Positions 15,474-21,839 are shown, counted from the first letter of the stretch. The stretch: 64,000 bases of DNA from Escherichia coli (GCF_002854065.1 NZ_CP024147.1); one strand, 5' to 3'. Notes: generated by a model not told the origin, from the sequence alone. A program made the numbers and translations.

Positions 15474-18400
15474 AAAGGGAGGCTTTAAAAGCCGTTTGAA
15501 GTCGGCAATATTAAGCCGCATGCCATCTCGACATGCGGCTTATACGGTTTACCAGCTATATTTCACTCCCAGCATGCCCTGAGTATCGCTATAGCCTTTA
15601 TCACCTAGTTGCACACCGACATTCCCCCACAGGCTAAGGTTGTTATTTACTTTCGCCTCAACCCCGGTACGTACTTCACCGAGATTACGCGCACCATCAT
15701 GGCTTACGGTTTGACCATTCATCTTCACGGCGTAGACTTTGCTATTGTTGATCCAGTTCGCTTCAATGTAAGGCTGGAACTCACGCTGTTTACCATCGTC
15801 ACGCTGGTGATGGCTGTTCAGGTAGGTTTTCACCCCAAGTCGCGTTTGCACGTTTCCGTCGCCTTCCGTTTCAATGCGTGTTCCGTCTTTCCGGTTATGG
15901 TCAGAATCTTTCACACCCATCCAGGTGATTTGCGCCTGTGGCTGGACGTACCAGGTATTCAGCGTCCCTTCGCTGCCTCTAAATGTTCCCGCTTCAAAGG
16001 TATACCCACCCTCAACAGAGGCCGTAACACCGCGAGAATCATAGTCGTCAGCAGAACGGTTATCGGAACTGACGCTGTTATCAAACCAGTTATACAGCAC
16101 CCAGCAGTCAACATAAGCGCCGGTCTTATTCGAATCGTTCTGATACCAGGTCGCGTACAGCCCAGCGCTGTAACCGCTGATGCGCCCATCCGATTTATAA
16201 CCCACACGATTACTCTGAGTATTACTGTGCTGATTGGCGTAGCCTGCCATCACGCCAAGATGCCAGCGATCCTGCGCGTTGCTACTCCACTGCGCCAAAT
16301 CGCCGCCTAGCTGCAATACATAGCGGTTAGCCTGAGTATTTAGCTGGCCGTCTCCGGCACTGGAACGTTCGTGCCCCCCGACATGACGCATCCACATACT
16401 GCTTGCTGAACCCTGAGAATGCAGTGAATCTGTATATTGCGGCTCACCCAGACGGTCGTGTAAGCGATGGCTAAACAGCGAGTTGGCTGCGGCAATGTTG
16501 CTGATATAGCTTCCGGCCTCCGGGCGATAAACTGATGGGCCTTCCGGATCCACAACAGGGGGATTATTGATGGGATCGGGTGTATCCGCTGGCGTTACGC
16601 CGTCCCATTTACTGGTCAGATACCAGTTTTTCTCGTCATTCCCCTTCCCTTTAGCCAGCGTGTAGACGTAAGCCCCAGCTTCGACAGTTCCGGTGGTCAG
16701 CGCGAAATTACCTGCAGAATTACCGCCAACCTCAATGAGTTCAATACCGTTGACCGTTTGCGCACCGACGCCGCCAATGTTATCAACCCGAACGCGAGTG
16801 TTCCCTTGGGTATCGCCTTTCACGTTCATCTTATCGGTGGGCGAATTATCGCCGCCCAGCGTCGCGTTGAACGTAATCAGGCCATTGTTTCCGGTATAGT
16901 TACCGTTAACGGTCAGTACATTCCCCGGTTTCCCCCCTTCGCTATTCATTTGAACCGTGCCGCCATTCTCCAGGTTGCCGCCGATTGTGGTTTTAGCGAC
17001 ACGCTGTGTCCCCCCAGACATAACGTTCACATCACCTGCAGTGGTGACGTTTCCCGACATCACACCGCTGTTATGGATATTAATGTGCTGACTTGCCATA
17101 TTAATGGCAGAGTCGGAACCGAAAGCAATTTCACCACCCACGATATCCGTCGTACCCTGATACGCCGCGGAATCGTTGTTAAGAGTCAGGATCCCGGTAC
17201 CCAGTTTTGTCACATCACCGCTACCGCTGATACTGTGCGTCATCGCCCAGCTACGCTCAGTGGAGATGATGAGCAAGCCATTATTGATAACGGAAGCATC
17301 ACCCAGGTTTTTCTGCTCGTTGACGCCGAGCGCGCTGCCAGCATCGATGTTAAATTGCCCCGCAAAGCGGCTATTATCGCCATCCAGCTCTACATCTGTC
17401 CTGGCGGTTGCGCTCACGATACCCTTCCCGCTTATGCTATTACGCAGTTCGCCAGTCACGTTTTTTAGCGTTAACAGACCGTCATTGGCAATATTTCCTC
17501 TGCCTAACCCCTGCGTATTATCGAGGCTGACTTCCGCATTTGGGCTAACGCTGGTTAACGCATTGTAGCGTGCATTAAGCCCCTCGACAGCCAGCGTTCC
17601 CCCTGTAACATTCAGGTTTCCGCCACCTGTCAGTTCACCCTGACTGATCCCACCTTTATTTACCGTCAGCGACCCTTCTTTGAACAAAACAGTCGAACCC
17701 ATCTGCCCGGTAAATGTCTCTACCGTCTGCGTCGATCCATTAAGATCGACGATGGCTGCGTTGCTGATGTTCAGTTCCCGGGTGTTGCCCAGCGCGCCAT
17801 CCGCATCGGTACGTAATGTCCCCATCTGAACGTAGGTTGCCCCCTGATAGTCGTTCTGACCGTTGGAAAGCGAAACCTGTCGCACCGTATTGATTGCCAG
17901 ATCCCCTTCACCACCGATTTTTGCCGACATATCGGCCGTTGCGCCATAGGCTCCGCCATGTTCGGCTAACGTCAGCTTTTGCCCTCCATGGATGTTCAGC
18001 GCTTTCAGCCCATAGTTAACGTACAAACCATCACCTGGTGCGGTCGTGAGGCGGAATCCATAATCACCCTCGGCGACCACCGTTCCGTTTTGCGCAATGT
18101 GTAACGTTTTGTCCGCTTCCACCTCGTCGCCCTGTAAATCACGTAACGTTAATGAGCCACCCGACCCAATAACCGTTTGCGCCTTCACCAGTTGAACGCC
18201 GACATGGTTATCATCGTATTCCAGCAAATTGAGCGTCGTCAGAGGGTTATTCGCCATAGGATCATTCCACGGTTTAGGCACGTCGATAAGCACGTCGCCC
18301 GTCCCGTTTACCTGATAGTTACGGCCTTTCCAGGTGTAGTCACTCGCGCCGACAACCAGCGTATCGACGCTGATATATCCCTCTGCAAGCGTCGCAGCAG

Positions 18401-20444
18401 GAATATCCGTATCGAAAATGAGCGTACCGCCATTCATGGCCAGTCCACCAATGGATTGCTCTCCCACGTTTACCGATGTGGTATTTTCAATGTCAGACTG
18501 CAACATCGCGTGAGTAAGCGCAGCGGTGTTGTCGCGTTCCAGAGTGAAGGTACTGTCTTTCAGTTGGGCAACACCGGCGAATTCAGTCCCTGTTGCATGT
18601 GTAAAGCCAAACATCTTGTCGGAGGATGACAGCTGAACTCGCATCAAGCCATCGCCTTTGAGCGCATTGGTCAGCGTGTAATCTCCTGCACTGTTCGTTG
18701 ATGCGAGAATGTCGAGCGTACCGGGGCTTGCAATGGTTACTTCACTCGACCCCATGCCCGTTACCCCATCTGCCGTATGAGACGCAATGGTCAGGAGGCC
18801 GTCATTGACCAGCGTTTTACCGCTATAAGTATTCCCTGCATTGAACACCGTATGGCCTGCATCATGGATCACTTTTCCGTCTTTATCGTCACCTGTAATC
18901 AGCATATCGACCTGGTAGCCGGCATCACTGTTATTAGTATGATTAAAGACAAAAACACCTTCGCCAGAGCCAAACTCTACTTTCGTCGCGTTGGTGATAA
19001 ATCCGGCATCTGCCGCCGCCTCACCGTGAGCTGCACCAATGTTTAGCGTTCCTACAGCAGGTTCAAAAACACCTAAGTAAACTTCTCCACCTTCGACATT
19101 CAGCGTGCCGCTATTCGTCAGGGTTAACGTACCCGTACCAGATGTCCCTACGTACATATTGAATGTTTCAAGAAGAGAGTTCTGCCCATCCACCCTCACG
19201 TCGCCCTTGCTTTTGTCATTGAGAGCTATCTGTGTATCACGCGCTTTAACTATACCTCCGGTGGTAATATTCAGTTCACCCGTGCCTAATACACCGACCT
19301 GTAGCAATTGGGCGTTAGTAGATGATGTCTTTAAATTCCAGAGACTATCCGTTGAAATATTAACTATCCCCTTACCGGAGGCATTTCCTCCGATAAATCC
19401 ATAGCCCGTTGAATTAAGGGTGGCACCATTACTGACATTTACGATACCGCTACCAAAATTACCGACATTGATACCCACAGTATCGAACGATGATGTCGCA
19501 TCCATCAGGTTCAGTGTGCCGATACCGCTTGCTTTATCGCCCAAAAAAGTAATATTTTGCGATACAAACTTACCGCCATCGCTAATATTGAGGTTTCCGA
19601 CACCCGCAACACCAATGGTGGTATAGACATTCTTATTGACCTCCCACATCCCCCCCGTGGTGATGCTGACATTCCCGACGCCGGTTTCTCCATAACCGAG
19701 TGAACTTCCTCCGTTGCTGACAACAAGCCCCTCATTACTGATATTCATTTCGCCGTGGCCGTCATAACCAAGATTAGTTCCGAGATTAGTGATAACGGAG
19801 TTCTTATCCTTAACAGTAATGTTGCCTGTGCCTGATTCTTTCATCCCCGCAGTGATAATTCCAGAATCTACTTTACCTTCACGCGAGACATTAAGTTCAC
19901 CGTCACCAGCATCACCGATATAGATATAGCGGAAAGCTTCGCCTGTTCCGAGGAAATTCCAATGCCCTTTATCGGTCACGTTGACGACACCGTGGGAACC
20001 GTCCTGAACGCCCACCAATGAATATTCTTTGTTATTAATTAGTCCATTATTGGAAATATTGACTGCGCCATTACCGAAATATCCATTATAGAGTCTGCGT
20101 ACCGTGATGACAGAGTCTTGATCCTGCACATTCAGGGTTCCGACACCGGTGGCATTGCCACCGATAATCGTATTTTCAGCCGTAACCAGCCCCCCCTCGC
20201 GAATAGTCGCCTCCCCCATCCCTTGATTACCAATTTGAAATTCAATTGCGGAATCATTATTTTTTATTAGCCACTCGCCACCCTTTTCAACGACAACCTT
20301 ACCATTACTGTTCGCTTGATATCCTAAAATGGCGACTATTGAACTCGTAACGTAACCCTTATCCGTAATATTTAATGAGCCCGTACCGTAACTCCCTATT
20401 TCGAATAATTCGGTCGTCAAAACCGAGTCCTCTCCCTCAACATT

Positions 20445-20453
20445 AACCGTCCC
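20445..20453. repeat. 9-bp target-site duplication AACCGTCCC (left copy) of IS1 copy 2
   Basis: identical 9-mer at 20445..20453 and 21222..21230. Confidence 0.9.
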
Positions 20454-20468
20454 GGTAATGACTCCAAC

Positions 20469-20972: not shown

Positions 20973-21166
20973 CCAACGCCATTCATGGCCATATCAATGA
21001 TTTTCTGGTGCGTACCGGGTTGAGAAGCGGTGTAAGTGAACTGCAGTTGCCATGTTTTACGGCAGTGAGAGCAGAGATAGCGCTGATGTCCGGCAGTGCT
21101 TTTGCCGTTACGCACCACCCCGTCAGTAGCTGAACAGGAGGGACAGCTGATAGAAACAGAAGCCAC
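20891..21166 (-). CDS. insA: IS1 InsA
   Basis: 91-aa translation identical to copy 1. Confidence 0.9.
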
Positions 21167-21221
21167 TGGAGCACCTCAAAAACACCATCATACACTAAAT
21201 CAGTAAGTTGGCAGCATCACC

Positions 21222-21230
21222 AACCGTCCC
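21222..21230. repeat. 9-bp target-site duplication AACCGTCCC (right copy) of IS1 copy 2
   Basis: identical to 20445..20453. Confidence 0.9.
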
Positions 21231-21839
21231 GACGCCTGCAGCTTGAGTACCTAATCTTAAATAGCCTCCATCGACGTGACCCTTCTGTTTAATATTCAGC
21301 GTCCCCGTTCCGGATTGACCCACATTTAAAGGCCTTGCATTATTTCCGCTATCATACAATCGCCAGGTGCCACCCAAAACATTAACGGTGCCCTCTGAGT
21401 CCTCATTAGCGCCAATGACGCTGGTAGTAATAGTGGTTAAGGAGGCATTACCGCCAGCCAAAATATTAAGCACTCCAGTGCCATACCAGCCAACCAGGTA
21501 GGCATCATAAGCAACATCAGTATCAATATTTGTAATCTGACCATTATCAACTTCAAGACTTGCACCAGACGCTGAACCGCTTAGTGCCAACAAAACACCC
21601 AGCGTCAATCTACGGAATTTCGTTGTCAGTCCAGAGGATTTACGCAAATTAACCATTGATGTTTTACCTACCCTGCGAGTTAATTCCGAGCAGGCCTGAA
21701 ATACCTGTAGGGTGCAATTCCATATCACGCGATAGATTCTATTCATATAAACGCTCCATATACAAACAATACAGCCTCGAAAGAAATGAGTCGTCAGACA
21801 TTAAAAATGAAACTTATTAAATTGTCAGAGGTCTGTATT

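Follow-up and report, generated by a model that had tools for sequence, protein, structure and literature searches.

An ECSE_1600-family autotransporter gene interrupted by IS1 and preceded by Tn1722 in the terminus region of an Escherichia coli chromosome

Organization of the locus

The window, a 64,000-nucleotide stretch of Escherichia coli DNA (GCF_002854065.1, NZ_CP024147.1), harbors an autotransporter gene in the order hipA-hipB-gene-lsrK-lsrR, and the position between hipB and lsrK is conserved. The gene is located between dif and a Ter core that we take to be TerC, from its position and the K-12 map. IS1 lies within the coding sequence (CDS) and a complete Tn1722 lies upstream of the start codon. 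A second IS1 copy is found at 5530-6297, giving two in the 64 kb; so low a number, in a region collinear with E. coli, gives little reason to suspect a Shigella origin. The features are as follows (one per line, with strand):

13639..13666, minus: dif, the XerCD chromosome-dimer resolution site (exact 28-nt match), 1.9 kb past the 3' end of the gene
15549-21746, minus: autotransporter gene, stop codon 15549-15551, ATG 21746-21744
15549..20453, minus: 3' part of the CDS, codons 173-1806 and stop; most of the passenger, autochaperone region and beta-barrel
20445-20453 and 21222-21230: 9-bp target duplication AACCGTCCC flanking IS1
20454..21221, minus: IS1, 768 bp, with canonical terminal repeats GGTAATGACTCCAACTTATTGAT / GGTGATGCTGCCAACTTACTGAT
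20469-20972, same direction as the autotransporter gene: IS1 insB
20891-21166, same direction as the autotransporter gene: IS1 insA
21222..21746, minus: start of the CDS through codon 175, ESPR signal peptide included (ORF and PF13018)
21747..21839, minus: native upstream DNA still attached, 93 nt; ribosome-binding site GGAG, 7 nt from the ATG
21834-21839 and 27480-27485: 6-bp direct repeat TGTATT flanking Tn1722
21840..27479, plus: Tn1722, complete, 5640 bp; its first base, 21840, is 93 nt from the ATG
21840-21877: inverted repeat of Tn1722, starting GGGGGAACC
22029-23606, minus: mcp-like gene (orfI), pointing toward the autotransporter gene
23916-24476, plus: tnpR of Tn1722
24480-27446, plus: tnpA of Tn1722
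27442-27479: inverted repeat of Tn1722, starting GGGGAGCCC
27486..27922, minus: displaced part (437 bp) of the 530-bp lsrK-autotransporter spacer, collinear with relatives after transposon removal
38467..38480, plus: GGATGTTGTAACTA, a Ter core of TerC type between yneE and uxaB; native distance to dif 18.4 kb

All features of the preliminary description are present at these positions, exactly or within 2 nt.

The autotransporter protein

Removing IS1 together with one repeat copy joins the 15549-20453 ORF to 21231-21746 and restores a gene of 5421 nt with a single ORF of 1806 aa. The reconstructed protein shares 97.1-97.8% identity with intact orthologues, likewise of 1806 aa, and differs from its closest relatives by 1-2 residues. 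The NCBIfam model NF011422 (ECSE_1600 family) is matched over positions 1-1806 of 1806 with 4115 bits (curated cut-off 2335 bits). Because of this full-length match and the hipA-hipB-gene-lsrK-lsrR synteny, the gene is, as judged from sequence, an ECSE_1600-family classical (type Va, AIDA-I-like) autotransporter, orthologous to the K-12 pseudogene yneO (formerly ydeK/ydeU). The predicted architecture is that of type Va: an ESPR extended signal peptide for Sec export (PF13018, residues 1-48, E = 2.4e-13), a repeat-rich passenger (TIGR04393 in nine stretches, plus TIGR02601) and a C-terminal 12-stranded beta-barrel translocator (TIGR01414, residues 1346-1806, E = 1e-121). The relatives' protein, 1-2 residues from the reconstruction, has PF03797 (translocator barrel) on record, as well as PF03212 and PF18883 (autochaperone or pertactin-like region). 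The passenger contains 16% Gly, 10% Thr and 9% Asn. PF13018, this composition, TIGR01414 and NF011422 bear out the 1806-aa protein with extended signal peptide, Gly/Thr/Asn-rich passenger and C-terminal barrel that had been described beforehand. Adhesin activity of the passenger is putative and suggested by family resemblance; a literature search found no experimental paper on this protein.

IS1 in the coding sequence

The element at 20454-21221 has the size (about 768 bp), the imperfect terminal repeats of about 23 bp, the insA/insB pair and the 8-9-bp duplication that define IS1, and is 99.0-99.3% identical to IS1A copies of other genomes. It splits the gene after codon 175, and the present 5' ORF encodes 175 native residues followed by 8 from IS1 (GDAANLLI) and a stop. 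The 183-aa truncated product, looked up as an exact match to find sisters with just one insertion, is not on record. The 768-bp element, the 9-bp duplication and the restored 1806-aa ORF together establish the IS1 insertion in the CDS that had been proposed. IS1 entered very recently by simple transposition after codon 175, inactivating the gene. The truncated product retains the signal peptide plus some 110 residues of passenger and, because the translocator barrel is missing, cannot be displayed at the surface. The insertion was probably neutral or nearly so.

Tn1722 and the upstream region

The transposon consists of 38-bp terminal inverted repeats around mcp-like orfI, tnpR and tnpA, without the tet module, and matches the published structure of Tn1722, the basic transposon of Tn1721 (PMC5756416). 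Other chromosomal copies share 99.96-99.98% identity with it, and their genes are annotated as MCP, recombinase and TnAs1-family transposase. The target duplication is 6 bp, which is atypical: the canonical length is 5 bp, as in two other copies (L003 and L004), and alignment to the empty site requires removal of 5640 + 6 nt. Removal of the transposon with one repeat copy restores the native 530-bp spacer without gaps relative to relatives. Tn1722 lies 93 nt from the ATG, close to the initial estimate of about 95 bp, and has indeed separated the gene from its native upstream DNA, moving 437 of 530 bp of spacer 5.6 kb away.

The displaced spacer is AT-rich (GC 0.338 in the 27500-27999 window). 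Scanned for promoters and terminators, neither the retained 93 nt nor the displaced 437 nt shows a consensus sigma-70 site on the gene strand or a terminator, and no sigma-70-like match lies wholly inside the retained part (21747-21839) in standard or relaxed scans. The relaxed scan yields weak candidates, the best of which (TTGACA-17-AACACT) is on the displaced side and ends 1 nt from the Tn1722 duplication; they say nothing about where the real promoter lies. A genomic SELEX table places an RpoS-holoenzyme site within the ydeK-lsrK spacer (PMC5493296); conversion to current K-12 numbering, calibrated on hipB, puts it some 400 bp before the ATG, within the displaced DNA. As both the resolution of the table and the conversion are rough, the value is to be taken as a hint only. 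The native promoter probably sits in the displaced DNA. The insertion nevertheless would change nothing in protein output, because IS1 already truncates the product at 175 native residues, without a beta-barrel.

Empty sites in relatives

After removal of both elements the window aligns gap-free with six assemblies of the same lineage (99.92-99.96% identity over 20.8 kb). These share the lsrA frameshift (a 1-bp deletion) with the window, encode the intact 1806-aa protein and carry neither element. Among 5,426 complete E. coli genomes, the Tn1722 junction of the window has no match, and other nearby Tn1722 insertions turned up; the IS1 junction likewise has none, and a different IS1, about 300 bp off, interrupts the gene in two of the genomes. 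Both insertions are recent and private to the strain, because close relatives have empty sites and no junctions are shared. Comparison with strains carrying an intact orthologue, suggested at the outset, thus gives their sequence without gaps once both elements are removed, and each element has its own target duplication and exact empty site, as expected of the two independent insertions proposed.

Distribution of Tn1722 in the terminus region

In the 5,426 complete genomes Tn1722 is joined to the hipA-lsrA region in 48 genomes (a count uncorrected for clonal relatedness; about 13 Korean and Japanese poultry genomes, for example, represent one event), against about 220 chromosomal copies. It lies one way in 30 of them and the other way in 18. 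Sixteen distinct sites are found (15 from genomes plus that of the window), between -2.4 and +18.3 kb of dif, several of them with differing, verified duplications. They fall in hipA (two), in the autotransporter CDS (four, in addition to the upstream site of the window), in tam (three), in fimbrial genes, lsrK, lsrD and lsrB, and 56 bp before TerC. The mapped zone reaches as far as TerC, with no site in roughly 6 kb searched beyond it; because copies more than about 10 kb from the query region escape the search, the outer boundaries are soft. The autotransporter gene receives 5 of the 16 sites and makes up 29% of the zone (5.95 of 20.8 kb); because these proportions agree, there is no gene-specific excess.

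The Tn1721 transposase binds DnaN via a QLxxLR motif, and three of three recovered chromosomal Tn1721 insertions lie within about 25 kb near terC (PMC11417375). TnpA of the window has QLCLLR at residues 54-59, which fits this motif and predicts DnaN binding. Tn1722 moved independently of IS1 into the AT-rich DNA 93 nt ahead of the start codon, its transposase probably directing insertion preferentially to where chromosome replication terminates. In the dif-TerC zone of roughly 21 kb no gene offers a larger target than the autotransporter gene (29%). The clustering is probably due to DnaN-mediated targeting of replication forks at termination. The terminus region is also poor in essential genes, and survivorship could add to the clustering. 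On balance, the interval of about 20 kb between dif and TerC appears to be a sharply bounded Tn1722/Tn1721 hotspot in natural E. coli, with about one fifth of chromosomal copies and none mapped past TerC.

Tolerance, selection and alternative explanations

The autotransporter gene is often defective. In K-12 it is a pseudogene by frameshift (5422 nt), E24377A and O157 Sakai have truncated copies, B2 strains lack it (PMC2608844), and in many sampled E. coli genomes it is frameshifted or broken by IS1, IS2, IS3-type elements or Tn1722. The preliminary description had read the two hits as selection for, or tolerance of, loss. Tolerance is upheld by these many broken and missing alleles; selection finds no support, given the regional preference of Tn1722. 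The dif-TerC region holds 48 of about 220 chromosomal copies, and the element's own choice of target, rather than selection acting on the adhesin gene, best accounts for where this copy lies. We therefore consider it likely that a recent IS1 knock-out of an ECSE_1600-family gene coincides with an independent Tn1722 insertion arising from terminus targeting. The 6-bp duplication, differing from the canonical 5 bp, speaks against this explanation, and recurrent disruption by many element types is also expected if loss is adaptive.

Adaptive loss, in which silencing of a surface protein is advantageous (immune or phage evasion, cost saving) and both insertions were favored, would account for the independent disruptions in many E. 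coli and for the gene missing from B2 strains. It is unlikely, as Tn1722 hits the gene in proportion to its length (5/16 against 29%) and unrelated neighbors in the zone (hipA, lsrK, lsrB, lsrD, tam, fimbrial genes) are targets equally; furthermore, intact alleles are under purifying selection (dN/dS 0.18-0.22), the closest relatives keep the gene intact, and whichever event came first, a second silencing gains nothing, so that two hits argue for selection no more strongly than one. Less likely still, Tn1722 may have altered the expression of a normally silent gene, either by loss of an AT-rich silencing region or by co-directional read-through from mcp, comparable to the IS-activated bgl operon, the IS1 knock-out then being compensatory. 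Silencing of this gene by H-NS is presumed here from other cryptic E. coli adhesin genes. Such an effect would fit the low GC content of the displaced spacer (about 34%), the orientation of mcp toward the gene with no terminator-like site found before the ATG, and an IS1 in strain GPEC1405, at most 9 bp from the Tn1722 site of the window and like it some 95-105 bp before the ATG, the GPEC1405 gene itself being intact. The retained 93 nt, however, have no complete promoter-like element, and AT-rich DNA is favored by IS1 and by Tn3-family elements, which explains the proximity without selection. The GPEC1405 insertion could, for its part, hint at selection on the regulatory region instead of chance, which would count against the explanation by terminus targeting. 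Misplacement of IS1 or Tn1722 during assembly, the gene really being intact, is conceivable for multi-copy repeats such as these (IS1 being present twice in the window), but is highly improbable: both elements have perfect target duplications, which mis-assembly would not make, and their exact removal recreates the sequence of the relatives precisely and gap-free.

Significance

The double insertion is ordinary: the gene lies in a stretch of the terminus prone to Tn1722 and is often defective in other strains. By itself the locus, one more dead copy of an often-dead E. coli gene, is of small importance. Its chief value is as a caution, since two mobile elements on one gene resemble selection even where the position of one is set by the terminus preference of the transposon. 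Tn1722 is the backbone of the tetracycline-resistance transposon Tn1721, and its dif-TerC clustering in deposited complete genomes supports the model of targeting through DnaN and termination. The pattern, perhaps the more useful result, offers a forecast of the chromosomal positions at which related resistance transposons should turn up and of the genes they should repeatedly knock out (hipA, lsr, the autotransporter gene). If the hotspot is real, hipBA, the autotransporter gene, the lsr (AI-2 uptake) operon and tam would be recurrent collateral casualties, the window being one instance, and a bias documented until now by three insertions in the laboratory would gain confirmation at population scale together with a boundary at TerC.

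Comparison with known systems

The closest known counterparts are K-12 yneO (b4696, formerly ydeK + ydeU) and SE11 ECSE_1600, which occupy the same hipB-lsrK locus, belong to NF011422 and encode 1806 aa if intact. The gene is dead in K-12 as in this strain; the lesion in K-12 is a frameshift, whereas here a recent IS1 is the sole lesion of the CDS and other members of the lineage are intact. The type Va adhesins AIDA-I, MisL and ShdA likewise combine an ESPR, a repeat-rich beta-helical passenger and a C-terminal barrel. The protein gives partial HMM matches to the AIDA-I, MisL, ShdA and YfaL/EhaC models, and because these are far below the curated cut-offs (340 against 1200 bits for AIDA-I), it is orthologous to none of these. 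The IS1 insertion resembles other IS1 inactivations of non-essential surface-structure genes (the same 768 bp, a 9-bp duplication and a truncated product) and is nothing unusual.

Tn1722 belongs with the terminus-biased Tn3-family elements, Tn1721 in E. coli (PMC11417375) and Tn917 in Firmicutes, as the TnpA of the window has the QLxxLR motif (QLCLLR at residues 54-59). The duplication of the window's Tn1722 is 6 bp and not 5 bp. The insertion falls in the roughly 20-kb TerC-adjacent region of the three insertions in that study (PMC11417375); those are laboratory events, whereas the sites described here come from natural isolates (48 genomes, 16 sites including that of the window).

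Organization of the Terminus Region

The window covers a replication-terminus region of E. coli type, arranged as follows:

13639-13666, dif, the chromosome-dimer resolution site (exact 28-nt match)
between dif and the long minus-strand gene, hipA and hipB
15549-21746, minus strand, autotransporter gene
beyond the autotransporter gene, lsrK and lsrR, then the lsr operon, tam and yneE
38467-38480, Ter core GGATGTTGTAACTA, in the yneE-uxaB spacer

A second complete IS1 (5530-6297), oriented like the one in the autotransporter gene, lies beyond dif on the opposite side, at about 8 kb from it. 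In other strains the DNA directly beside hipA and dif is variable: the YY76-1 group carries an island with two tyrosine-integrase genes (locus L030, 5700-16040), and another strain has a block of an MBL-fold hydrolase and IS1 adjoining hipA/dif (locus L002, 2256-4734). Variable content appears to be a general feature of the dif-proximal spacer.

The Split Autotransporter Gene

The preliminary description of an autotransporter coding sequence split by IS1 holds: the element (768 bp, 20454-21221) has canonical ends and is flanked by a 9-bp duplication, AACCGTCCC. Taking out IS1 and one copy of the duplication restores one 5421-nt ORF, whose 1806-aa product scores 4115 bits (cut-off 2335) over the full length of the NCBIfam model "ECSE_1600 family autotransporter". 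The architecture that had been proposed for this protein is confirmed, with an ESPR extended signal peptide (residues 1-48), a passenger containing T5SS repeats and rich in Gly (16%), Thr (10%) and Asn (9%), and a C-terminal autotransporter barrel (residues 1346-1806). The K-12 counterpart at the same locus, the hipB-lsrK interval, is the pseudogene yneO (b4696, 5422 nt). At present the split gene encodes 175 native residues followed by 8 IS1-encoded ones; because this product has no translocator, it is non-functional at any level of transcription. The gene is an ordinary case: its family is known and often decayed, and IS1 has recently inactivated this member.

Tn1722 and the Upstream DNA

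The transposon upstream of the gene comprises 5640 bp:

21840-27479, Tn1722, with 38-bp inverted repeats (GGGGGAACC... and GGGGAGCCC...)
22029-23606, minus strand, mcp-like gene
23916-24476, tnpR
24480-27446, tnpA

This gene organization agrees with that of Tn1722, the basic transposon of Tn1721 (PMC5756416), and there is no tet module within the 5640 bp. Chromosomal copies in other E. coli are 99.96-99.98% identical and are annotated with a methyl-accepting chemotaxis protein, a recombinase and a "TnAs1 family" transposase. An ORF of 351 aa (23760-24815, minus strand) overlaps tnpR and the beginning of tnpA in antisense, where the element has 65% GC; it is most likely spurious, a product of the high GC content, and none of the identical copies inspected has it annotated. 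TGTATT occurs on either side of Tn1722 (21834-21839 and 27480-27485) and, as comparison with empty sites shows a gain of 5640 + 6 nt, the duplication is 6 bp long. In contrast, two other copies checked (loci L003 and L004) have 5-bp duplications, the length described as characteristic (PMC11417375).

As had been proposed, the element lies close upstream of the autotransporter ATG (first transposon base 21840, 93 nt away) and parts the gene from its native upstream region: 437 of the 530 bp of spacer are now displaced by 5.6 kb. Consensus promoter scans of the upstream DNA gave nothing on the gene strand. The best candidate of a relaxed scan, TTGACA-17-AACACT, has its -10 ending 1 nt from the Tn1722 duplication, in the displaced part. 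A site for the RpoS holoenzyme, located by genomic SELEX in the ydeK-lsrK spacer (PMC5493296), would by a rough coordinate conversion likewise fall in the displaced part, some 400 bp upstream of the ATG. Since mcp is directed towards the autotransporter gene and a terminator-like site was not found between them, read-through is possible. In strain GPEC1405, an IS1 (locus L001, 8762-9547) lies upstream of an intact autotransporter copy. The 9-bp duplication of this IS1, GAGTGTTAG, adjoins the TGTATT of the window directly, the insertion corresponding to window 21840 / 27486-27494, so that two different elements in two strains are at most 9 bp apart, approximately 95-105 bp upstream of the ATG. 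The simplest reading of this nearness is an AT-rich target preference. Insertion can activate a gene by relief of silencing, as in bgl, and a regulatory effect of this kind is conceivable for the upstream insertions, with low probability; in the window the upstream changes leave the outcome unaltered, because the IS1 truncation is decisive.

Age of the Insertions

Neither the IS1 junction nor the Tn1722 junction occurs in any of 5,426 complete E. coli genomes, and look-up of the truncated autotransporter product gave no record anywhere. The lineage of the window was traced through lsrA (30796-32330), in which a 1-bp deletion at 31519 in an A-run (GGGAAAAA to GGGAAAA) leaves two ORFs of 268 and 244 aa. 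The identical 268-aa product is recorded across 291 blocks of the assembly collection, and the frameshift thus marks a lineage and is not an error of sequencing. Members of that lineage probably cannot import AI-2. Six assemblies from the set spanning these blocks were examined, and all six have an intact 1806-aa autotransporter, neither element and a 530-bp spacer. Without both elements and one copy of each duplication, the window aligns to them gap-free over 20.8 kb at 99.92-99.96%, the reconstructed autotransporter differing by 1-2 residues. The two insertions, with their separate duplications, are independent events, as the preliminary description had supposed, and both are recent and private to this strain.

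Distribution of Tn1722 around dif

Nearby Tn1722 copies in other genomes turned up unexpectedly in the junction search, among them one 20 nt inside the same autotransporter coding sequence (S1-CAM-01-A, duplication TATCA) and one in the 3' end of lsrK (EH08-18-36, duplication TTTGA). In the collection of 5,426 genomes the Tn1722 end occurs at approximately 220 chromosomal places and, in an evenly spaced sample of matches, chromosomal copies lie mostly near the record midpoint. With the whole hipA-lsrA region as query, Tn1722 is joined to it in the orientation of the window in 30 genomes and in the opposite one in 18; these 48 genomes represent about one fifth of chromosomal copies in less than 1% of the chromosome. 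Sixteen distinct sites were mapped, 15 in other genomes and that of the window (window 11200-38480; loci L003-L005, L008, L011, L012, L015-L017, L019-L022, L031, L032).

Mapped Tn1722 sites (distance from the dif centre in native coordinates)
-2.4, -2.0 kb: fimbrial genes
+0.8, +1.3 kb: hipA
+2.8, +5.2, +6.7, +7.3 kb: autotransporter coding sequence
+7.4 kb: upstream of the autotransporter ATG (window)
+8.1 kb: lsrK
+13.9 kb: lsrD
+14.7 kb: lsrB
+16.6, +16.7, +17.1 kb: tam
+18.3 kb: 56 bp before the Ter core (+18.4)

Another two events could be located approximately, one beside another Tn3-family element at lsrF/lsrG and one in an island adjoining hipA. Both orientations are found, and no sites were mapped past Ter in a search extended about 6 kb beyond it. 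The autotransporter gene and spacer make up 5.95 of the 20.8 kb (29%) and received 5 of the 16 insertions (31%; 4 of 15 with the window excluded), so there is no gene-specific excess.

Loss of the Gene: Selected or Tolerated

The two insertions had been taken to suggest selection for, or tolerance of, loss of the adhesin, and the evidence favors tolerance. According to the SE11 genome paper, SE11 and HS have the intact gene and MG1655, E24377A and O157 Sakai a truncated one, whereas three B2 strains lack it (PMC2608844). Many of the genomes inspected have copies that are frameshifted or split by IS1, IS2, IS3-type elements or Tn1722; independent splits include IS2 in the fox isolate LR882493 (locus L015, 8699-9927), IS1 in a human-isolate group and IS3-type elements in others. 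Positive selection for loss would have to be reconciled with a dN/dS of 0.18-0.22 between intact alleles and the reconstructed allele of the window, indicating that purifying selection maintains the gene where it survives. This, together with the intact gene in the window's own lineage, argues against selection for loss, and the position of Tn1722 is accounted for by regional targeting. A lone recent IS1 in a 5.4-kb non-essential gene and a regionally targeted transposon provide no evidence of positive selection for loss, though such selection may still have acted.

Comparison with Tn1721

The transposase of Tn1721 binds the beta-clamp DnaN via a QLxxLR motif, and all three chromosomal insertions recovered fell in approximately 25 kb near terC, from which the authors cautiously concluded a bias to the replication-termination region, as for Tn917 (PMC11417375). 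The TnpA of the window contains QLCLLR (residues 54-59); given the known bias, Tn1722 lies beside the autotransporter gene as predicted. The genome survey agrees with the three laboratory insertions and is much larger. It is consistent with the dif-TerC interval being a natural hotspot where Tn1722 characteristically inserts, and adds natural-population support for the terminus bias of Tn1721/Tn1722.
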